Below the pieces are notes generated by a model. That model worked only from the letters and a program-made list of their open reading frames with translations, searched no databases and was not told where the DNA came from. Shown here piece after piece: positions 39,195-64,000 of a stretch of DNA of 64,000 nt. Numbering within the stretch: position 1 is the first letter of the stretch; each line of letters opens with the position of its first letter. This DNA is from Longimicrobiales bacterium (GTDB taxonomy: Bacteria; Gemmatimonadota; Gemmatimonadetes; Longimicrobiales; Gaopeijiaceae): assembly GCA_965219445.1 (NCBI GenBank), contig CBDCNQ010000005.1, positions 1,568,001 through 1,632,000 on the forward strand. Reading direction: 5' to 3'. A program made the position numbers and the translations under genes.

Positions 39195-41429
39195 CTAGTT
39201 GCTGGGTGGCGGCGCCTCGATATGCATCTCAACGAGCATCGCCTGGAACCTGGGGTCCTCCCTGATCGGATCCACGTCCGGCAGCCAGGCGAGCGTCGCT
39301 ACTCCGAAAGCACGGAGGTCGATTGCTCGCTGCAGTGTGGCGATAGCCGAGTCGTACTGACCGACGGCTAACTGATACCGAGCCAGGTCGACCGATCGCT
39401 CGCGGAGCGCCGCGCTCAGGTCGGCGGGAACCTCCTGGGCCTGCCCGGTCGTGGCGAGGTGCTCGGCACCCGCCAGGAACTCAGCCATCGGCTCCGCATC
39501 GATCCCTTTCACCTCGGCCACGCGCGCGAAAGCATCCCCCGCGTCCCCGAAGCGCTTCTCAGCGAGGAATAGGAACCCGATCTCGGTCCAGATCCGTTCG
39601 TCGTTCGGGCTCAGCCGGATCCCGTCCTGAGCCTTGCCGATCGCCTGTTCCAGCCGCCCCGAAGCGGCGAATACGCGCGTTGCAGCGAGCTTCACGGCCG
39701 ACGACAGCATATCGACGCGCTCAGCGGCCCGAATCGTCGCGACGGCCCGCTCATGTTGTCCGGCACCCGCGAGCCCGCGGGCCCGGCGCAGGAGCGTCGA
39801 GGATGACGTTGGCCCACTCGCCAACGCTCGCTGGAACTCCACGCCGGCACCGGTCCAATCGTAGGACCTCGACAGGAAGAGCCCCATCGCCGATGGCGCC
39901 TCGCTCGACCCTGGGTCGATCCTCAGCGCTTCCAACGCGGTGCTAGCACCTTCCTCGAGCACCTCACCGACTTGTCGATCGGGCAGGATCTCAGAAGCCC
40001 GCGCGTATGCTTCCGCCGCACCGGCCCAGGCAGGCGCATAGGCGGAGTCCAACGCGATCGCCATGTGGTAATTGTCAATCGCCGCGAGGACTCCAGCCTC
40101 CGTATGGCGATTCACGTTGAACTGGCCCCACAGGTACTTGTCGTACGCCATCTGGTTGGTGGTTGGCACTTCATCGATCATGGACAGCTCACCCTCGGCG
40201 AATCGCATCTCGAGCGCGCCGAGGATCGCGCGCGATACTTCGTCTTGCACCACAAAGAGGTCATCGATAAGGCGCTCGTACTCCGCGCTCCAGATCTCCC
40301 CTCCATCGGCGGACAACAAGCGCGTCTGGACCCGAACACGGGCGTCGCTCTTCGCCACCGTGCCGGCGAGCACGCTGCGTACGCCCAACGCGGAAGCTAC
40401 GGCTGCATGGTCTACCCCTCCCATCATGGCGGCGAGAGAGGATGCTCGAGCGGCGACATCGAGCTCCGGAACGCTGGACAGGCGAATGCGCAGCTCGTCC
40501 GACAGCCCATCGCTGAAGTAGTCGTCCTCTGGGTTGTCCCCCACGTTCTCGAAAGGCAGGACGGCGATCGATCGGATCGCGCCGCCACCTGCGATGGGCT
40601 CCGGAGCCACGGAAGTCGCGTCGGTGAGGAACCACCCGAGCCCTCCCGCAGCCAAGACACCCGCGATCAAGAGCGCGGATCCGCCGCTCAGGAGACGAAT
40701 GGGAGCCGGTGACTCGCCGTGACTCCCGGCCGTGCGGATGAGCCCCTGGGACGTGATGTCGAAGAGCCAGGACCCCGCGAACGCGAGCGGCAATCCCACC
40801 AGGGTCGTGATTACGAGGAGCCGCATGACGAAGTAGGGCAGCCCAAGGGCGGGGAGCATGATGTCGGCGGCTTGCAGCACGGCGAACATCGCCGCCCCAT
40901 AGATCAGCACGACGCGAAAGACCCGGCGGCGCTTGAGCTCGGCGACGAAGTCCTTCACTGCGGAGGGGTCTCTTTTCTCAACGTCGTCTCGCATGGGGAC
41001 TTCCAGTCCGTCTGCCGCGATCGCATGGATTGCCACGGGTGAAACGACGTTCTTGAGACAGAAATGACCGAGGGACACGGTTGGAATCGACGGCCGGTTC
41101 TTGAGCTCGTCGAAAATTTTTTCCGAGACGAGAACACTCCCGGGAACCGCTAGCACCTGAATTCGAGCCGCTACGTTGACGGCGTCTCCGTAGACACCCT
41201 GATCGTCGAAGGAGACCTCTCCTTGATGGACCCCGATCCGTACGGGCACGGGGCTGTCGCTGGCGAGTGCACGTTGAATGTCGATTGCGGCTGAAACCGC
41301 AGCGACTGCACTCGGAAAGACGGTGAGGCTGCCGTCGCCATAGTGCTGGACAACCTTACCACCGTGCTCCCCAGCGGAGGAAGCAACCGCGTCACGCTGA
41401 CGCCGCCGAGCGGAAAGCGCGTTTGGGTC
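39195..41429 (-). pseudogene. 5'-truncated class III cyclase / TolB-like / TPR membrane protein
   Basis: YGDG, RIGVHQG, GDAVNVAARI, ELKRRRVFRV, SIAVLPFEN and TPRs; frame open to 41429, then TGA with no start and no first cyclase motif. Confidence 0.7.
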
Positions 41430-42079
41430 TCAGCGTGAAGGATTTGCTTCATCACGTGCTGGCTGTGCTCCACGATCCGGTCTACCGCAAGGCCAACGCC
41501 GGGGCGCTCAGGATGGAATGGCCGCGCATCCCGCTGCCCGGCTGGCCAGACGGCGAGGCTGAAGGAGCAGCTGAGGCGCTCGCCCGGTCGGCGACACATG
41601 GGCGCGAGCTAGCCGCTCTACTCGATCCAGAAATGCCGGTGCCCGGCGTCACTCGAACCCCGCTGCGTCCCGCCGCCGCCGCTATCGCTGTTCCGTGTAC
41701 CGTCGGGGGACGCAACATGGCGGGCGCCGATTTCGTCGTCACCGTCGGCTGGGGGCACTACGGGTCGGGCGACGCTGTGATGCCCGGCCGAGGCCGCGCC
41801 GAGGAACGAGCCTACACACCGGAGGAAACTACGGCCATGTTGGACGCGTTGCCGGTTCTCGGCGACAAGACCTTCGATGTCTACCTCAACGGGGAGGCAT
41901 TCTGGCGCAACATCCCCGCCGCGGTCTGGGACTACAGGCTCGGTGGCTACCAGATCCTCAAGAAGTGGTTGTCATACCGGGAACGTGAAGTCCTCGGCCG
42001 GAGACTTCGGACCGAGGAAGTTCAGCACTTCACCGATACGGCACGACGAATCGGTGCGATACTGGTAGCGCTAGGTTAG
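41423..42079 (+). pseudogene. C-terminal fragment of a Type ISP restriction-modification enzyme (specificity domain)
   Basis: AVLHDP.YR..NA..L...WPRIPLP and W.Y.LGGYQILKKWLSYRE; no methylase or helicase part. Confidence 0.7.
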
Positions 42080-42265: not shown

Positions 42266-42952
42266 ATGCGGAAACTCATCGTGCTGTGCGTTGCCGAAAT
42301 CATGATCGTAGCAGGGAGTTTCCTGGCCGAATATTTCTGGCCAGCAGGAGACCTTCGTTGGGCTTACGTATTGCTCGCTGGAGCAATCGTGATTCCACTG
42401 CTCTATAGTCCAGAAATTTGGGGCTTCATTCGCCGTCAAGCAACGAAGAGCAGAGAGGCAGACGACACCGAAGTAGAGTCGTCACCACTCCCCCCGGTTA
42501 TTCCCGAGCCGCGTGTTGTCACTACGGTTGACCCAGGGGAAAGCCAAGTTAGCCAGGGGAGAGGCAACCCACTCATCGTTCCAATCTGCATTACAGTAGA
42601 AAACGGCCTTGACGTAGCTGCGCACTTTAGCAAGCTCACACTCGATATTGAAATGAAGGGAGGGGAACGCTCAAGCTGTCAGTTCAAGCACTATCAGATT
42701 TCTCCTCCACCTAGTACCGAACCCAAGCCAGCTGTTTTCCTGTATCGGGTTAGTGATATATCTGTACCAGCTAGACAGTCTATACAGGGATGGGTGTGCT
42801 TTCAGCACGACATCATACGTATTCCATCTTTTGAGAGGTTCGTGTTCACTGCTCAGGCCATAGGTGAGCCCGAGCAAGAATTCAGTTTTGAGCCCTATGA
42901 TTGGCCGCAGGCGACCAATCATCATTCACGGCTCGTCAAGGTGTCGCAGTGA
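42266..42952 (+). CDS. Hypothetical protein with two N-terminal TMs
   Basis: Long ORF in visibly lower-GC DNA; no family recognised. Confidence 0.55.
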   Translation: MRKLIVLCVAEIMIVAGSFLAEYFWPAGDLRWAYVLLAGAIVIPLLYSPEIWGFIRRQATKSREADDTEVESSPLPPVIPEPRVVTTVDPGESQVSQGRGNPLIVPICITVENGLDVAAHFSKLTLDIEMKGGERSSCQFKHYQISPPPSTEPKPAVFLYRVSDISVPARQSIQGWVCFQHDIIRIPSFERFVFTAQAIGEPEQEFSFEPYDWPQATNHHSRLVKVSQ

Positions 42953-43292
42953 GGGGGCGGTCTATGCGTAGTAGCACATTGGGATCCTGCGGAGAAGGTA
43001 GATGACTCATCGCTTGCTGCTGCCTGACCTTGAAATACGCTCGGGAGCGTTCGGAAAGGTCCACCGGAACAACATCTACAATGTCATCGCTGTGTCCGTA
43101 CTAGGCGGTGAGCCAATGCGCCTGTGAGCTAGGATCAAAGGCATCATAGGGGCATGGCGACCGCTACCGGTACCGATCAGCAGCGAAGCAGCCCGAAGAC
43201 GAAGAGGCGTTCTCCTCCGGGAGCGGGTGCGCGTTCATCATTATTCGCGCAAGCAAGCAACCCAACCCGTCCTACCCAAGAGGAGGATGCCC

Positions 43293-44540
43293 ATGGAGAG
43301 GTATATCGGACTCGACGCACACGCGTCGAGCTGCACGCTGGGGATTGTAGGCCCCAGCGGCAAGCGCTTGGGCTCGCAGGTGGTGGAGACGAACGCGCGG
43401 GCGCTGATCGAGGTGCTGCGAGGGATTCCGAGGAACCGGCACTTATGCCTGGAAGAAGGGACGCTGTCGGGGTGGCTGTACGAGGTGCTGAAGCCGCACG
43501 TGGAGGAGCTGACGGTGGCGGGGGTCGGCAAGAGCCGGGGCCCGAAGACCGACAAGCTGGACGCGTTTGCCCTGGCGGAGAAGCTGCGGATCGGATCACT
43601 GGAGACGACGGTCTACAAGAACCGGGGCCAGTTCAGGCGGCTGGGGGAACGGGCGAAGAGCTACGACTTCTTGGTCGGCGACACGGTGCGGGTGAAGAAC
43701 CGGCTCAAGAGCGTGCTGCGCTCGAGAGGAGTGGCCTACGGCGCGGGGCGCTCGGTCTACTTAAAGCGCGACCGGGAGGAGTGGTTGGCCAAGCTGCCGG
43801 AAGCGAGCAGGACGACGGCCGGGTTGCTGTACGAGGAGCACGACGCACTCGTGGCATTGAGGGCGAAGGCCGAGAAGGCGTTGCTGGCGGAAGCACGCAA
43901 GCATCGAGAGTGGCATGTGCTGAAGACGTGCCCGGGTCTGGGTCCGATCCGGACGGCGGAGCTCCTGCCGGTGGTGGTGACGCCGTACCGGTTCCAGAGC
44001 CGGAGCAGGTTCTGGGCGTACTGCGGACTGGGCGTCGTGATGCGGAGCTCGTCGGACTGGGTGCGGGGTCCGGGTGGGCGGTGGGTAAGGGAACCGGTAC
44101 AGCAGACGCGGGGGCTGAATCGGAACTTCAACCACACGCTGAAGCGTGTGTTCAAGGGCGCAGCGACGACGGTGATCGGTCGGGCCGAGGACGAGCCCTT
44201 GTACCGCCACTACGAGCGACTCCTGGAGGGGGGCACGAAGCCGAATCTGGCGAAGCTGACGATCGCGCGTCAGCTCGCCTCGATCGTGCTAGCGGTGTGG
44301 CGCACGGGCGAAGCGTACGACCCAAGAGACTGGAAGCGACGGAGTAAACCGGCCTGGGATCGGCGAGCGTGGGGTCGAAAGCGGTCACAACATGGGGTCC
44401 GACGAAACGGAAGCGAACCGGTTACAGGGGACAGCATCCATACACACCGTGGGCCGGGGCAGAGAGCCCAAGCCCCCACTCAAAGGCTATGCACCCCTGG
44501 AAGAGCCGAACGAAGCGATGGGCCACAGAGTCCCAGATAG
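43293..44540 (+). CDS. IS110-family DEDD recombinase/transposase, C-terminus extended by an apparent 1-nt deletion
   Basis: YIGLDAH, CLEEG, KTDKLDA, PGLG and AYCGLG...RSS; AGGAGG RBS; probable ancestral stop at 44347. Confidence 0.9.
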   Translation: MERYIGLDAHASSCTLGIVGPSGKRLGSQVVETNARALIEVLRGIPRNRHLCLEEGTLSGWLYEVLKPHVEELTVAGVGKSRGPKTDKLDAFALAEKLRIGSLETTVYKNRGQFRRLGERAKSYDFLVGDTVRVKNRLKSVLRSRGVAYGAGRSVYLKRDREEWLAKLPEASRTTAGLLYEEHDALVALRAKAEKALLAEARKHREWHVLKTCPGLGPIRTAELLPVVVTPYRFQSRSRFWAYCGLGVVMRSSSDWVRGPGGRWVREPVQQTRGLNRNFNHTLKRVFKGAATTVIGRAEDEPLYRHYERLLEGGTKPNLAKLTIARQLASIVLAVWRTGEAYDPRDWKRRSKPAWDRRAWGRKRSQHGVRRNGSEPVTGDSIHTHRGPGQRAQAPTQRLCTPGRAERSDGPQSPR

Positions 44541-44605
44541 AAGGATGGTTCCCGCTCCAGAGCGGAGAACGCGACGGCTGTGAACGTCTTCCGGACTGCG
44601 ATGCG
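44425..44605 (+). ncRNA. Candidate bridge/seek RNA core in the IS110 3' non-coding end (ends approximate)
   Basis: Stem-enclosed loop with tacacacc (44441-48) and tcaaagg (44480-86) matching the target; atagaagg (44537-44) matching the donor. Confidence 0.7.
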
Positions 44606-44735
44606 GACCCTGCGAGCGCACCCCTCCCCACCCTGAGTCGTCGACCGGGCAATCCAAACCATGCGGACGCCGACGGTCAAAAAATGAGCCGACGGCGCGT
44701 GGGGAAGGTGCGTCTTGACCGCCAGCCCCATAGAA

Positions 44736-45245
44736 GGGGGGCACGAAGCCGAATCTGGCGAAGCTGACGATCGCGCGTCAGCTCGCCTCGATCGTGCTAG
44801 CGGTGTGGCGCACGGGCGAAGCGTACGACCCCAAGAGACTGGAAGCGACGGAGTAAACCGGCCTGGGATCGGCGAGCGTGGGGTCGAAAGCGGTCACAAC
44901 ATGGGGTCCGACGAAACGGAAGCGAACCGGTTACAGGGGACAGCATCCATACACACCGTGGGCCGGGGCAGAGAGCCCAAGCCCCCACTCAAAGGCTATG
45001 CACCCCTGGAGAGCCGAACGAAGCGATGGGCCACAGAGTCCCAGATAGAAGGATGGTTCCCGCTCCAGAGCGGAGAACGCGACGGCTGTGAACGTCTTCC
45101 GGACTGCGATGCGGACCCTGCGAGCGCACCCCTCCCCACCCTGAGTCGTCGACCGGGCAATCCAAACCATGCGGACGCCGACGGTCAAAAAATGAGCCGA
45201 CGGCGCGTGGGGAAGGTGCGTCTTGACCGCCAGCCCCATAGAAGG
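44736..45245 (+). repeat. Tandem 508-bp repeat of the IS110 3' part (44228-44735), including the non-coding end
   Basis: Direct comparison; two 1-nt indels relative to copy 1 (gacccc vs gaccc; ctggagag vs ctggaagag). Confidence 0.9.
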
Positions 45246-45341
45246 GTGTGTAAAAAAAGAGGCGACGTACCTTTCCGCTAGGTAGTAAGAAGTTAACCAG
45301 CGAATCCCGGGTGAGCGCCCGGGGGAAAGGAACGATGCCTC

Positions 45342-46586
45342 GTGAGGAAGAATATGGTGGGACCCGAGAGTGAGTCCAGCACGCCGACGTGGGAGTGCTT
45401 GGAAGCGCTGGTTCGTGAGAAGGCCCAGGAGATGGTCCAGCGGATTCTGGAGGAGGAAGTGACGGAGTTGCTCGGCCGGGAGAAGTCGGAGCGGAAGACG
45501 GTCGTAGACCCGGCGCCAGGCTACCGCAACGGCTACGGCAAGGCTCGGCGGCTGGCGATGAGCTCGGGCACGATCATGCTCCGACGGCCCCGGGTTCGAG
45601 GCATTGAGGAGCGGTTCGAGAGTCGGGTGTTGCCGTTGTTCGCACGACGGACGAAGGAGGTGGGTGCTCTGCTTCCGGAGCTGTATCTGCACGGGCTGGC
45701 GGAGGGAGACTTCGAGCTGGCGATGCGGGGCCTGCTGGGCGAGGGGGCCCCGTTGTCGAAGTCTTCGATTTGGCGGCTGCGGGCGGGATGGACAAGGAAA
45801 TTCGAGGAATGGTCGAAGCGCTCGCTGGCCGACCGTGAGGTCGTCTACGTCTGGGCGGACGGGATCTACGTGAAGGCGGGGCTCGAGCGGGACAAGGCAG
45901 CGCTGCTGGTGGTTCTCGGTGCGATGCGAGATGGTACGAAGGAGGTGTTGGCCCTGAGATCGGGCTACCGAGAGTCGGTCGAGTCCTGGTCCGAGGTGTT
46001 GCGGGATCTGAAGGCACGCGGCATCGAGGCGCCCCGGCTTTTGATGGCGGACGGCAACGCGGCGATCTGGGGCGCAGTACGGCAGGTATGGCCTGAGGCG
46101 GGCGAGCAACGGTGCTGGAACCACAAGATGAGGAACGTGCTGGACCGGCTGCCTCAGCGGGAGCAGAGCGAGGCGAAGGACCTTCTCAGGACCGTGGTCT
46201 ACGCACCGAGGCGGTCCGAGGCGCTGAAGGCCCGTGAGGCGTTCGCCAGGCGCTACAGACCGTGGTATCCGAAGGCGGTGGATGTACTCGAGGACGACTG
46301 GGAGCGGATGGTGGCGTTCTACGACTTCCCCGAGGACCACTGGAAGCATCTACGCACGACGAACGTGGTCGAGAGCCCCTTTGCCGCAGTACGGCTCAGG
46401 ACAACGGCGGCGAAGCGCTTCAAGCGGGTCGAGAGCGCTACGGCGCTGATCTGGAAGCTGCTCTTGGTGGCGGAGAAGCGCTTCAGAAGGCTCGACGCTC
46501 CTCACCTCCTCAAGGACGTATTTGAAGGAAGAAAGTTCGAAGACGGAAAGCCCGTCTCAACCCAACAGCGGAAAAACGCCGCCTGA
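45342..46586 (+). CDS. IS256-family (Mutator-like) DDE transposase
   Basis: YRNGYG, LYLHGL, VWADGIY, MADG, QRCWNHK and RTTNVVES motifs. Confidence 0.92.
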   Translation: MRKNMVGPESESSTPTWECLEALVREKAQEMVQRILEEEVTELLGREKSERKTVVDPAPGYRNGYGKARRLAMSSGTIMLRRPRVRGIEERFESRVLPLFARRTKEVGALLPELYLHGLAEGDFELAMRGLLGEGAPLSKSSIWRLRAGWTRKFEEWSKRSLADREVVYVWADGIYVKAGLERDKAALLVVLGAMRDGTKEVLALRSGYRESVESWSEVLRDLKARGIEAPRLLMADGNAAIWGAVRQVWPEAGEQRCWNHKMRNVLDRLPQREQSEAKDLLRTVVYAPRRSEALKAREAFARRYRPWYPKAVDVLEDDWERMVAFYDFPEDHWKHLRTTNVVESPFAAVRLRTTAAKRFKRVESATALIWKLLLVAEKRFRRLDAPHLLKDVFEGRKFEDGKPVSTQQRKNAA

Positions 46587-46750
46587 AACATTTACACACC
46601 TATTGACCCAACCTCTGCGCCTGACTGCCGACGCATTGAGCGCAAATGAGTTCTCATCCTACGTGGAGAACCTAAAGAAGCGATTAGACACTCTTGTGGC
46701 AGAGGCGAGGGCCGACGAGACGAAGCTTCGAAAGAGCCAGGGTCTACCCC

Positions 46751-47640
46751 TTATGCGGCCGTCAGCTCCCGATATCGAAGAGCCTCCCGATCCAGGAGCC
46801 GGGTCATGATCGTCTCGAAGATGTACGGGTTGTGCCGGTTGTTGAACCTGAACTCGACCTCGGAGAGGTAGGCGTCCAGGTGCTTCGCGCTGATCTGGTG
46901 CCACGCGCCGACGATGGAGCGCTTGAGCAGGCTCCAGACGCCCTCGACGCTGTTCGTGTGAACGTCACCGGCCACCCCACTCCTCCTCGCAGTGCCTGAC
47001 CGTCTCGTGGCGCGTGTCGTGGTCGGCGATCCCGAGGTAGGACTTGAGCTCGTCGGTGTAAATCGCCTCGGTGTCGGGCCGCGTGTTCCTGGCGATGAAG
47101 GCGTGGAGCGTGGCCCGCTTGATGTCGGGAACGGCCTTGATGCGGACCTCGCCGCCACGCTGGACGGCCCCTGCCACCCATGTCTTGTCGACCCGGTTGC
47201 CGGTCCCGACCCCGCGCCTCTTGCCGCTGATCAGGGTCTCGTCCACCTCGACCACCCCGAACAGGGTCGGTCCGCCGACTACACGGCTCTTCATGGCCGT
47301 ACGGATGCGGTGGCACAGGTGCCACGCGGTCTTGTAGGAGACGCCGATCATCCGCTTGATCTGGTTCGCGCTGATGCTCTTCTTCGACTCGCAGATCAGG
47401 TAGATCGTCACGAACCACTTCCAGAGCGGAAGGTTCGTGTTGTCGAAGATCGTCCCAGACGTGACGCTGAAGCGGTAGCGGCACCCGTTGCAATCGAACT
47501 GGTCGCGGGTGCTGATCTCGGAGACGGACAGGCCCCCGCAACGGGGGCAGCAGACGCCAGCGGACCAGCGCAGCTTTTCGAGATACTCGCGGCAAGTCTC
47601 TTCGTCGCGGAACTTCTCGATCAAGGAAATCAGATTGATT
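46751..47640 (-). pseudogene. IS1595-family transposase, frameshifted
   Basis: Zn ribbon CPRC/CNGC, TAW..CHRIR, VEVDET, IYTDE, HTNSVEGVWS and YLSE..FRFN; extra G near 46975. Confidence 0.85.
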
Positions 47641-48229: not shown

Positions 48230-49062
48230 GGATGTGTTGCAACTTTCAAAAATCAGCAAGAGAGCGACTGGTTGGGTCGACCAGGCTCCGTCTTACTGCG
48301 GCCACTTCGAACAGCTTGTTGATGAACTGAATCTGTTGCCGAACATCCGAACCGCTCACCCACCTCGCCTGACCCTTCCGGATCATGTGAATTGCCTCAT
48401 AATCCTTGGATCGTTCGCCGTGCCGCGTGAAATTCACGAAAGCCCTGCTTGGCCTTCACGCGTCGTTTGATCGCTCGATGATCCTGCTCCAGGATGTTGT
48501 TCAAGTATTGGATCGGCCGGTGACGGCAACGGTGTCGCAGGATTCCTTCCTGCTTCACTCCTGAAATCGCCGCGCCATAGAGGCGTGCTTGGTCCGTATA
48601 GATAACCCGGGGCTGCCGATGCGACGGATTCGTCAGCGCCTGGCGGAACAGGCGTTTGGCCGTAGCGGCATCGCGCAACCTCGAGAGCACGAAGTCGGTC
48701 GTGGCGCCGGTGGAATCGATGGCTCGGTAGAGGTAGCACCAACGGCCCTTGACACGAACGTAGGTCTCATCGACCCGCCAGGACCTGTTGGTTGGCTTGA
48801 GATGACGGCGCAGCCGCGCCTCCAGTTCGGGACCGTAGCGCTGGACCCGGCGCCAGATTGTCGTGTGGTCCGCCTCCAGGCCGCGCTCGCTGAACAGCTC
48901 TTCGACATCGCGGAACGAGAGCGAGTACCGAAGGTACCAGCGCACGGCGCAAAGAATCGGCTCGGGCTCGGTTTGTCGCCACTTGAAGATCGCCGGTCGG
49001 ATTGTCTTTTTCATGATCTCTTCAGGTTACCAGCCGCTGTCCGCCAAAGTTGCAACACAACC
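48230..49062 (-). mobile_element. IS6-family element (833 bp) with frameshifted transposase
   Basis: 17-bp IRs ggatgtgttgcaacttt / aaagttgcaacacaacc; VRWYLRY.LS, WRVDETY and NNILEQDHR; +1 shift near 48400. Confidence 0.88.
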
Positions 49063-60934: not shown

Positions 60935-61216
60935 GCCCATAACCAGTCGTTGCTTAATCTCGTACAGCATATGAGCGGACACATCGCGGCTACCGACTCC
61001 GCGGCCAGACGCCAGCTGCGACGGCCAGCGGATCCAGAGGGTTCCGTAGGAGCTAGGATCAAAGGCATCATAGGGGCATGGCGACCGCTACCGGTACCGA
61101 TCAGCAGCGAAGCAGCCCGAAGACGAAGAGGCGTTCTCCTCCGGGAGCGGGTGCGCGTTCATCATTATTCGCGCAAGCAAGCAACCCAACCCGTCCTACC
61201 CAAGAGGAGGATGCCG

Positions 61217-62464
61217 ATGGAGAGGTATATCGGACTCGACGCACACGCGTCGAGCTGCACGCTGGGGATTGTAGGCCCCAGCGGCAAGCGCTTGGGCTCG
61301 CAGGTGGTGGAGACGAACGCGCGGGCGCTGATCGAGGTGCTGCGAGGGATTCCGAGGAACCGGCACTTATGCCTGGAAGAAGGGACGCTGTCGGGGTGGC
61401 TGTACGAGGTGCTGAAGCCGCACGTGGAGGAGCTGACGGTGGCGGGGGTCGGCAAGAGCCGGGGCCCGAAGACCGACAAGCTGGACGCGTTTGCCCTGGC
61501 GGAGAAGCTGCGGATCGGATCACTGGAGACGACGGTCTACAAGAACCGGGGCCAGTTCAGGCGGCTGGGGGAACGGGCGAAGAGCTACGACTTCTTGGTC
61601 GGCGACACGGTGCGGGTGAAGAACCGGCTCAAGAGCGTGCTGCGCTCGAGAGGAGTGGCCTACGGCGCGGGGCGCTCGGTCTACTTAAAGCGCGACCGGG
61701 AGGAGTGGTTGGCCAAGCTGCCGGAAGCGAGCAGGACGACGGCCGGGTTGCTGTACGAGGAGCACGACGCACTCGTGGCATTGAGGGCGAAGGCCGAGAA
61801 GGCGTTGCTGGCGGAAGCACGCAAGCATCGAGAGTGGCATGTGCTGAAGACGTGCCCGGGTCTGGGTCCGATCCGGACGGCGGAGCTCCTGCCGGTGGTG
61901 GTGACGCCGTACCGGTTCCAGAGCCGGAGCAGGTTCTGGGCGTACTGCGGACTGGGCGTCGTGATGCGGAGCTCGTCGGACTGGGTGCGGGGTCCGGGTG
62001 GGCGGTGGGTAAGGGAACCGGTACAGCAGACGCGGGGGCTGAATCGGAACTTCAACCACACGCTGAAGCGTGTGTTCAAGGGCGCAGCGACGACGGTGAT
62101 CGGTCGGGCCGAGGACGAGCCCTTGTACCGCCACTACGAGCGACTCCTGGAGGGGGGCACGAAGCCGAATCTGGCGAAGCTGACGATCGCGCGTCAGCTC
62201 GCCTCGATCGTGCTAGCGGTGTGGCGCACGGGCGAAGCGTACGACCCAAGAGACTGGAAGCGACGGAGTAAACCGGCCTGGGATCGGCGAGCGTGGGGTC
62301 GAAAGCGGTCACAACATGGGGTCCGACGAAACGGAAGCGAACCGGTTACAGGGGACAGCATCCATACACACCGTGGGCCGGGGCAGAGAGCCCAAGCCCC
62401 CACTCAAAGGCTATGCACCCCTGGAAGAGCCGAACGAAGCGATGGGCCACAGAGTCCCAGATAG
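61217..62464 (+). CDS. IS110-family recombinase/transposase, copy 2
   Basis: Same translation as 43293-44540. Confidence 0.9.
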   Translation: MERYIGLDAHASSCTLGIVGPSGKRLGSQVVETNARALIEVLRGIPRNRHLCLEEGTLSGWLYEVLKPHVEELTVAGVGKSRGPKTDKLDAFALAEKLRIGSLETTVYKNRGQFRRLGERAKSYDFLVGDTVRVKNRLKSVLRSRGVAYGAGRSVYLKRDREEWLAKLPEASRTTAGLLYEEHDALVALRAKAEKALLAEARKHREWHVLKTCPGLGPIRTAELLPVVVTPYRFQSRSRFWAYCGLGVVMRSSSDWVRGPGGRWVREPVQQTRGLNRNFNHTLKRVFKGAATTVIGRAEDEPLYRHYERLLEGGTKPNLAKLTIARQLASIVLAVWRTGEAYDPRDWKRRSKPAWDRRAWGRKRSQHGVRRNGSEPVTGDSIHTHRGPGQRAQAPTQRLCTPGRAERSDGPQSPR

Positions 62465-62529
62465 AAGGATGGTTCCCGCTCCAGAGCGGAGAACGCGACG
62501 GCTGTGAACGTCTTCCGGACTGCGATGCG
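62349..62529 (+). ncRNA. Candidate bridge/seek RNA core, copy 2 (ends approximate)
   Basis: Same guide-bearing stem-loop; tacacacc at 62365. Confidence 0.7.
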
Positions 62530-62757
62530 GACCCTGCGAGCGCACCCCTCCCCACCCTGAGTCGTCGACCGGGCAATCCAAACCATGCGGACGCCGACGG
62601 TCAAAAAATGAGCCGACGGCGCGTGGGGAAGGTGCGTCTTGACCGCCAGCCCCATAGAAGGGTGTGTAAAAAAAGAGGCGACGTACCTTTCCGCTAGGTA
62701 GTAAGAAGTTAACCAGCGAATCCCGGGTGAGCGCCCGGGGGAAAGGAACGATGCCTC

Positions 62758-64000
62758 GTGAGGAAGAATATGGTGGGACCCGAGAGTGAGTCCAGCACGC
62801 CGACGTGGGAGTGCTTGGAAGCGCTGGTTCGTGAGAAGGCCCAGGAGATGGTCCAGCGGATTCTGGAGGAGGAAGTGACGGAGTTGCTCGGCCGGGAGAA
62901 GTCGGAGCGGAAGACGGTCGTAGACCCGGCGCCAGGCTACCGCAACGGCTACGGCAAGGCTCGGCGGCTGGCGATGAGCTCGGGCACGATCATGCTCCGA
63001 CGGCCCCGGGTTCGAGGCATTGAGGAGCGGTTCGAGAGTCGGGTGTTGCCGTTGTTCGCACGACGGACGAAGGAGGTGGGTGCTCTGCTTCCGGAGCTGT
63101 ATCTGCACGGGCTGGCGGAGGGAGACTTCGAGCTGGCGATGCGGGGCCTGCTGGGCGAGGGGGCCCCGTTGTCGAAGTCTTCGATTTGGCGGCTGCGGGC
63201 GGGATGGACAAGGAAATTCGAGGAATGGTCGAAGCGCTCGCTGGCCGACCGTGAGGTCGTCTACGTCTGGGCGGACGGGATCTACGTGAAGGCGGGGCTC
63301 GAGCGGGACAAGGCAGCGCTGCTGGTGGTTCTCGGTGCGATGCGAGATGGTACGAAGGAGGTGTTGGCCCTGAGATCGGGCTACCGAGAGTCGGTCGAGT
63401 CCTGGTCCGAGGTGTTGCGGGATCTGAAGGCACGCGGCATCGAGGCGCCCCGGCTTTTGATGGCGGACGGCAACGCGGCGATCTGGGGCGCAGTACGGCA
63501 GGTATGGCCTGAGGCGGGCGAGCAACGGTGCTGGAACCACAAGATGAGGAACGTGCTGGACCGGCTGCCTCAGCGGGAGCAGAGCGAGGCGAAGGACCTT
63601 CTCAGGACCGTGGTCTACGCACCGAGGCGGTCCGAGGCGCTGAAGGCCCGTGAGGCGTTCGCCAGGCGCTACAGACCGTGGTATCCGAAGGCGGTGGATG
63701 TACTCGAGGACGACTGGGAGCGGATGGTGGCGTTCTACGACTTCCCCGAGGACCACTGGAAGCATCTACGCACGACGAACGTGGTCGAGAGCCCCTTTGC
63801 CGCAGTACGGCTCAGGACAACGGCGGCGAAGCGCTTCAAGCGGGTCGAGAGCGCTACGGCGCTGATCTGGAAGCTGCTCTTGGTGGCGGAGAAGCGCTTC
63901 AGAAGGCTCGACGCTCCTCACCTCCTCAAGGACGTATTTGAAGGAAGAAAGTTCGAAGACGGAAAGCCCGTCTCAACCCAACAGCGGAAAAACGCCGCCT
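62758..64000 (+). CDS. IS256-family transposase, copy 2 (stop codon cut by the window edge)
   Basis: Matches 45342-46586. Confidence 0.9.
   Translation, partial: MRKNMVGPESESSTPTWECLEALVREKAQEMVQRILEEEVTELLGREKSERKTVVDPAPGYRNGYGKARRLAMSSGTIMLRRPRVRGIEERFESRVLPLFARRTKEVGALLPELYLHGLAEGDFELAMRGLLGEGAPLSKSSIWRLRAGWTRKFEEWSKRSLADREVVYVWADGIYVKAGLERDKAALLVVLGAMRDGTKEVLALRSGYRESVESWSEVLRDLKARGIEAPRLLMADGNAAIWGAVRQVWPEAGEQRCWNHKMRNVLDRLPQREQSEAKDLLRTVVYAPRRSEALKAREAFARRYRPWYPKAVDVLEDDWERMVAFYDFPEDHWKHLRTTNVVESPFAAVRLRTTAAKRFKRVESATALIWKLLLVAEKRFRRLDAPHLLKDVFEGRKFEDGKPVSTQQRKNAA

Follow-up and report, generated by a model that had tools for sequence, protein, structure and literature searches.

Analysis of a 64,000-nucleotide stretch of a Longimicrobiales genome (contig CBDCNQ010000005.1; hereafter the window, numbered from its first letter) revealed two nested units in which an IS110-family element of the IS1111 type lies inside the left terminal inverted repeat (IRL) of an IS256-family insertion sequence (IS). 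The element carries a predicted RNA guide in its long right end that matches this repeat; this guide likely directs the element there, where it would split the repeat and likely immobilise its host IS, a reading to which we give a probability of about 0.88. Insertion of an IS110/IS1111-type element into the IS256 left repeat had been proposed in an initial annotation of the window, and the proposal is borne out by 23 of the 24 copies in the same genome, by the same junction in seven other genomes (in one case in a right repeat), by paired empty and occupied sites, and by covariation of the guides with the flanking DNA. The guide sequences, the altered empty ends and the internal duplication are additions to that proposal.

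Nested units in the window

Each unit is ordered as outer IRL, IS110-family element, rest of IS256 and right repeat. The parts belonging to IS256, and the second unit, are as follows.

43117..43124, + strand, left target-site duplication copy TGCGCCTG of IS256, with an additional T at 43125 before the IRL
43126..43140, + strand, outer 15 bp of the IS256 IRL, with the AG core of the IS1111 target (43139-43140) at its end
45245..45254, + strand, inner part of the IRL (bp 16-25) with the TGTAAA motif described in PMC7780238
45342..46586, + strand, IS256-family transposase, 414-amino acid open frame (NF033543, 295 bits)
46591..46615, - strand, IS256 right repeat, unoccupied, both core bases unlike the target
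46616..46623, + strand, right target-site duplication copy TGCGCCTG of IS256
61050..61064, + strand, second unit, outer IS256 IRL with AG core (9-bp duplication at 61041-61049)
61065..62660, + strand, second IS1111-type copy, 1596 bp, without the internal duplication of the first (guides at 62364-62373 and 62402-62410)
62661..64000, + strand, second IS256 body, inner IRL and transposase, with the right repeat just beyond the window end

Removal of 43142-45245 in silico yields a 25-mer with 20/25 identity to the reverse complement of 46591-46615, and thus restores the IS256 left end as the initial annotation had claimed. The identical insertion point that it placed at 61050-62670 was likewise found, with the same junctions. 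Its description of the flanking direct repeats holds for the 8-bp TGCGCCTG on both sides, but one additional T precedes the IRL, giving 8+1. The host transposase belongs to the IS256 family, with an NF033543 score of 295.4 bits against a cut-off of 150 and a further match to PF00872, and the host IS has inverted repeats of ∼25 bp with TGTAAA (the 20/25 match) and duplications of 8 or 9 bp. It resembles ISCth4 and the IS256 family in its Mutator-type DDE transposase, ∼25-bp repeats with TGTAAA and 8-9-bp target duplications (PMC7780238).

Copies in the genome and its relatives

A probe from the left end of the element gave 25 matches in the 4.56-Mb genome of the window (G000), of which 24 are true copies; the match at C2-661602 proved to be the remnant of a sister element and was left out of the count. 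Twenty-three of the 24 copies follow directly on the outer left repeat of an IS256, at the same exact point. The other is off target, at the junction ACTCAAAG/GTGTGA, where there is no IS256 and the sequence is a near match to the guides. The junction of element and repeat was found in eight of the 401 genomes representing the order, all eight from one family: 22 junctions in G000 by that pattern, six each in G007 and G329, five in G232, two in G120, and one each in G267, G331 and G279, the last in a right repeat. (G232, G120, G331 and G279 are the same genomes, with the same coordinates, as G062, G064, G063 and G061, respectively.)

At three orthologous IS256 loci (G279/G329, G006/G007 and G209/G120) one genome of the pair has an intact, empty site and the other an occupied one, and a fourth locus, occupied in G000, is empty with a core change in G007. 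Twelve identical IS256 bodies in G000 hold 11 different element alleles, and one IS1111 allele group was found in IS256 subtypes that are only ∼78-100% alike. Taken together, these observations indicate separate insertions into resident copies, and the conclusion that the elements entered resident IS256 one by one, rather than as a travelling composite, is well supported. A single insertion giving rise to a composite IS256::IS1111 unit, copied whole by the IS256 transposase so that the shared junction reflects one event, is correspondingly improbable. Eight composite copies that retain their own 8-9-bp duplication, and the copies at C3+162174 and C5+1629066, which share identical alleles of both parts, are what such a unit would leave behind; the orthologous pairs, the allele distribution, the off-target copy lacking IS256 and the presence of an unrelated clade at the same site (see below) all stand against it, as does the finding that IS256-family ends require ∼25 contiguous bp (PMC7780238). 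As the sole route it is largely refuted, and for a few copies it is possible. Among the IS256 copies with both ends the original duplication is retained in 10 of 23, and 11 of the 28 left flanks in G000 correspond to the right flank of a different copy, a sign that the copies have undergone many rearrangements with one another. G000 was also searched for chimeric IS256 copies bearing no more than a short IS1111 right-end segment at their tip, and none was found.

That the repeated junctions were created by assembly of a repeat-rich metagenome is hardly credible. One-base homopolymer indels among the copies and the shuffled flanks might suggest it, but the seven other genomes and the metagenome contig L223 show the same junctions, each copy having flanks of its own, and the element is covered by contigs from four studies. 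As the source of the junction itself, an assembly artefact is refuted.

Some sites bear traces of further events. At G000:C4:1169769-1171675 (- strand) a 1.9-kb group II intron-like element, with a 481-amino acid open reading frame (ORF) containing YADD and 13 near-identical copies in G000, lies 3 nt to the right of the IS1111 junction within the same IS256 left repeat. The flank at G000:C2:600543 (AAACCCGG...) adjoins an IS256 right repeat in several genomes (also L068, L144 and L298), and the site of the second window unit carries an IS256 in reverse orientation in G331 (L147); each may be a shared old insertion or a hotspot.

Structure of the IS1111-type element

The first window copy has the following parts outside its guide region.

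43141..45244, + strand, IS1111-type element with one copy of the core (43139-45242 in the 7-left/3-right convention), containing a 508-bp internal duplication
43146..43159, + strand, left imperfect sub-terminal inverted repeat, matching 12/12 right-arm bases with two 1-nt gaps
43293..44347, + strand, DEDD IS110-family recombinase gene to the end of the 351-amino acid allele, with D8, E55, D87, D90 and S253 conserved; this copy reads through to 44540
44737..45244, + strand, second copy of the 508-bp 3′ duplication (of 44229-44736), with the AG core joined to an internal AG and a second guide set at 44949-45052
45223..45228, + strand, TTGACC, a -35-like hexamer
45228..45239, - strand, right imperfect sub-terminal inverted repeat, followed by the 3-bp extension

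The letters AAGG are common to both junctions, and the rejoined site is identical whichever boundary convention is used. The core was placed at AG (IRL bp 14-15; 43139-43140 and 45243-45244) because the right junction in relatives always ends in ATAG(A/G)AG or ATGGAAG, with a variable next base (A in G232). The terminal extensions are 7 bp on the left and 3 bp on the right, as described for the sub-terminal inverted repeats of the IS1111 group (PMC11187229), which are 11-13 bp long; here the arms match at 12 bases, with two 1-nt gaps. When the ends are joined, TTGACC would lie 17 bp ahead of CATCAT (43142-43147) by computed spacing, a predicted circle-junction promoter; a promoter scan of the linear sequence returned no sites. 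Insertion creates no new target duplication, orthologous empty and occupied sites differing by the element alone. The transposase gene is flanked by ∼150 bp of non-coding DNA upstream and ∼390 bp downstream, with the guides on the downstream side, another trait of the IS1111 group. Judged on sequence, the element appears to have most of the IS1111 features examined.

The recombinase matches PF01548 (39.8 bits, cut-off 29) and PF02371 (32.4 bits, cut-off 21.3). Its match to the NCBIfam IS110 equivalog NF033542 covers residues 1-345 (E 2.5e-32) at 112.3 bits, below the cut-off of 140, and this full-length but sub-threshold match marks it as a divergent member of the IS110 family. The acidic residues D8, E55, D87 and D90 are kept in 56-57 of 57 relatives, and S253 is invariant (57/57) within GLG...RSSSD, where the SG and P of the G--P----SG motif are absent. 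The best matches in a plasmid collection are 23-27% identical, and a sequence search of the PDB gave no matches. Both window copies are one C short in a run of Cs towards the end of the gene (∼44320 in the first copy) and read as 415 amino acids; the 351-amino acid reading is found in 17 of 23 copies of this genome, and the additional C is present in contigs from four of five DNA sequencing runs.

Tandem duplication of 44229-44736 makes the first copy 508 bp longer than a normal one. Such 3′ duplications occur in two genomes, 508 bp twice here and ∼458 bp three times in L064 (L064:3579-4838), and each (44229-45244 in the window, and that of L064) joins the AG core of the right end to an internal AG, which suggests that they are by-products of the recombinase that multiply the guide cassette.

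Predicted guide sequences in the right end

The long right end holds the predicted bridge RNA or seekRNA.

44420..44610, + strand, predicted bridge/seekRNA, a conserved scaffold with variable guide columns and boundaries set by inference
44440..44449, + strand, guide loop for the top strand (right target), in which TACACACC is the complement of IRL bp 16-23
44478..44486, + strand, bottom-strand (left-target) guide ACTCAAAGG, in which TCAAAGG is identical to IRL bp 10-16
44535..44544, + strand, left-donor guide containing ATAGAAGG, matching the right end of the element itself

Both TACACACC and TCAAAGG lie within the 389-nt right end, a combination seen in 9 of 100000 shuffles, and both are unchanged across 23/23 copies. 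The top-strand match is 5′ of the bottom-strand match, which is the IS1111 rule (PMC11187229). In an alignment of relatives the two words occupy variable columns inside the conserved scaffold, and ATAGAAGG varies together with the right end of the element in L214 and in the ATGGAAG clade.

Covariation was measured on 159 loci, 90 of them parsable, with 66 distinct guide pairs; the left flank was available for 43 of these and the right flank for 46. Guides matched their flanks at a mean of 5.56 (43 sets) and 5.63 (46 sets) of 7 positions, compared with 4.0 and 3.33 after shuffling, the right-guide score being the best of three registers for real and shuffled pairs alike; none of 5000 shuffles scored as high as the real pairs.

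These features are consistent with the following course of insertion. The element would circularise, bringing TTGACC-17-CATCAT together as a junction promoter. A bridge/seekRNA from the long right end, predicted from the match and covariation that were observed, would then base-pair over IRL bp 10-23, through TCAAAG(G) on the bottom strand and through TACACACC on the top strand, and strand exchange by the DEDD/serine recombinase at the AG core (IRL bp 14-15) would give the observed junctions with no new duplication. An IS256 occupied in this way is likely immobilised. In ISCth4, of the same family, an inverted repeat of at least 25 bp is needed and the transposase contacts bp 7-11 and 14-25 (PMC7780238); immobilisation agrees with this structure because insertion after bp 15 would separate the contact blocks.

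In G000 the right repeats yielded no element copy, and 0 of the 29 right ends found are interrupted, the probe detecting intact ones only. The core of the right repeat reads TA and that of the target AG, so that both bases differ. This fits the initial annotation's explanation of why the right repeat is free, and the occupation of the left repeat alone may be put down to this difference at the core.

Sister elements and the origin of the IS256 target

The metagenome contig L223 carries an element with a transposase of 69% amino acid identity and the guides CATCAAAGG and ATACACACCA; its guide words are the same, and it lies in the IRL of an IS256 with 73% amino acid identity. Together with L221 it nests among sisters with GGATAG-type guides in a quick tree of 57 rows. 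A single clade for the five rows with IS256 guides was rejected (approximately unbiased test, p-AU 3e-42; 21 rows), and the RNA scaffolds of these rows resemble those of their own clades. It is thus likely, as far as sequence can tell, that IS256-specific guides arose by independent reprogramming in two transposase clades; alternatively, short guide tracts may have been exchanged.

Sisters that are ∼80% identical and have other guides occupy other sites. A closer sister, 95% identical (L068:2345-3945, in G279), has the changed guides ATCACTAGG and ATACGCACCG and is placed after the outer half of an IS256 right repeat; its right flank is unrelated DNA, and the left ends in that genome are intact. 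A search of five genomes for a natural target of its guides gave only one unrelated match, with one mismatch.

Most sisters carry GGATAG / TTG(A/G)ATT-type guides. IS91-type (Y2) transposase sequence is found in the right flank of 7 of 29 GGATAG-type loci (L076, L085, L212, L228, L234, L241 and L274), many of the others having short flanks, and IS91 ends may be the usual target of the clade. The attC site was rejected as a target of these sisters, GTTRRRY being absent within 150 nt in 14/14 of the flanks listed.

Empty ends and possible escape

The 28 IS256 left ends of G000 comprise 23 occupied and five empty ones, and all five of the empty ends are altered inside the 14-bp target: by an added G, a deleted A, A>G twice and T>A, one-base changes that fall at bp 12-20. 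An exact empty 14-bp target does not occur anywhere in the 4.56 Mb of G000; every intact site is filled, and only altered ends are left empty. An empty IS256 with an intact left end, which the initial annotation had advised looking for, is accordingly missing from this genome in exact form, but the exact 25-bp site is present in relatives, 44 times in G331, five times in G279 and once in G007. The altered ends may be escape mutants or scars of imprecise excision. Three of the five sit on IS256 bodies identical over 1370 bp to the 12 occupied bodies, and the chance of all three changes hitting the target is ∼1e-6 if changes are evenly spread.

Other genomes give a mixed picture. Exact empty 14-mers number 0 in G000, G232 and G120, where full-length copies with the usual G101 are found, and 46 in G331, five in G329, one in G267 and seven in G279, whose copies carry G101R, frameshifts (which may be assembly errors), a truncation or changed guides. 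The effect of G101R was judged by conservation alone because a single-sequence fold of the G331 copy was unusable (predicted local distance difference test score, pLDDT, 40.5). This substitution is common to the copies of G329 (L289-L292) and G331 (L065), where 54 of 57 relatives have G. Among the empty ends of G232, nine listed of 10 read AAATGG (seven) or AATAAG (two), without the AG core. Thirteen genomes have left ends and no junction; nine of these have exact sites and four only variant ends. With small numbers and related genomes, and with saturation not universal, the pattern of saturation and escape is suggestive only.

Even with the targeting real, the altered ends could be ordinary IS256 subtype variation or assembly errors that were left behind once the other sites had been filled, with no selection or damage by the parasite. 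This alternative, which bears on the escape part only, has a substantial chance of being right, though somewhat below even. G209, in which no parasite junction was found, has 40 left ends of which only three are exact, and 8/9 of those listed are of the AAAAGG type; the four junction-free genomes with variant ends point the same way, and each variant in G000 is a singleton. Moreover, bp 14-15 differ between the left and right repeats in any case, and most variant positions (bp 12-15) lie at this seam; the right guide reads the conserved inner block. On the other side, three of the five variants are the sole change in 1386 bp, and each of the three reads as if left flank and right-junction letters of the element had been joined, at slightly shifted points; in G232 a core-destroying AAATGG allele is present in at least seven copies, with no exact site remaining.

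A broader account is tentative, and slightly less probable than that alternative: an arms race between two insertion sequences, in which the parasite fills and silences intact IS256 and IS256 escapes at repeat positions that its transposase can spare, or through excision scars. In this account an RNA-guided lineage mostly found at IS91-type ends would have had its guides changed, on two or more occasions, to suit the constrained TGTAAA half of the IS256 IRL, and a sister would have been retargeted toward the right repeat. If it is true, the parasite would be a natural RNA-programmed brake on IS256 expansion. The case itself offers a population picture open to testing: a guide, a fully consumed target, survivors with single changes at the core, genomes in which 1-46 intact sites coexist with parasite copies that are damaged or retargeted, and two separate clades that share the same guide words. 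It allows a direct test of whether other IS are held back by bridge-RNA elements and whether hosts escape these, and the variants supply natural mismatch data (core, bp 12-14 and bp 20) for an uncharacterised clade of IS1111-type recombinases.

Counter-evidence and recognition of the site

Several observations weigh against RNA-guided insertion followed by saturation and escape. The left guide matches at just 6-7 of 9 positions, the candidate right-donor guide is not conserved, and folding of the right end is no better than that of shuffles (z -1.2 and -1.35). The rows used for covariation are kin and non-independent. L221 has IS256-type guides and a GGATAG-type left flank. The arguments from allele linkage are blurred because recombination between copies has shuffled the flanks. 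G007 retains five exact empty 14-mers alongside four full-length copies with the usual G101, and in G232 the occupied sites carry an A at bp 16, where they mismatch the right guide at one base. Lastly, no circle or precise-excision joint was seen in contigs of five DNA and three RNA runs, although contigs cannot show absence. The RNA-run contigs do not cover the element and are silent on guide-RNA expression either way, and an Rfam scan of 42900-47000 gave no matches.

The partial left match, together with a guide RNA not detected in contigs (which cannot show its absence), leaves some room for a site chosen by protein-DNA recognition, by end-bound IS256 transposase or by DNA structure, the guide matches being incidental. 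Such recognition is nonetheless very improbable, more so than the composite unit, since guide words covary with flanks over 43-46 guide sets, ∼80%-identical sisters with other guides lie at other sites, and the 95%-identical sister with changed guides lies at a flank of the right-repeat type. Guidance by the right-end RNA remains the preferred reading.

Relation to known systems

Partridge and Hall are said to have reported in 2003 that IS4321 and IS5075, of the IS1111 group, insert at one position within the terminal inverted repeat of another mobile element. The present element is like these in being of the IS1111 type, with sub-terminal repeats, and in using a single position within a terminal repeat that belongs to a different mobile element. 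It is unlike them in that an IS256-family IS, instead of a transposon of the Tn21 family, serves as host and only the left repeat is hit, the two repeats differing at the core; its transposase has no match above 27% identity in the plasmid collection.

With the seekRNA elements ISEc11, ISKpn4 and ISPa11 (PMC11187229) it shares a long downstream non-coding region, 7-bp/3-bp extensions, a top-strand match 5′ of the bottom-strand match, overlapping matches and a junction promoter (predicted here), whereas its sub-terminal repeats are imperfect with two gaps, RSSSD replaces SG/TG, the target is another, and it is known from sequence alone. ISEc21, of the IS110 group, provides a parallel for RNA-guided insertion into another IS (the guide being predicted here), but its guide RNA is upstream, and it targets transposase genes of the IS3 family at their DDE codon instead of an IS end (PMC11187229). 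The IS621 bridge recombinase has in common with the present element a two-nucleotide core, left and right target guides, a donor guide and insertion favoured over excision, and differs in having its RNA in the left end and targeting REP elements (PMC11208160, PMC13626964).

The habit is therefore already known, both as IS1111 parasitism of transposon ends and as a bridge/seekRNA mechanism, and what was not found in the literature searched is the IS256 target. That search, made on titles and abstract openings and outside ISfinder, TnCentral and subscription papers, found no IS110/IS1111 element targeting IS256 repeats. The term IS256 has no occurrence in the main texts of PMC11187229, PMC11208160 and PMC10849738, nor in most supplements of the first two, and the part of PMC7780238 consulted mentions no repeat parasite of ISCth4/IS256 ends.

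Neighbouring features

An IS1595-family transposase in two frames (46751-47624, - strand) starts ∼130 bp past the first unit. Also nearby are a DDE ORF of the IS240/IS6 type (48397-49014) and a fragment of a Type ISP specificity domain (41423-42079).

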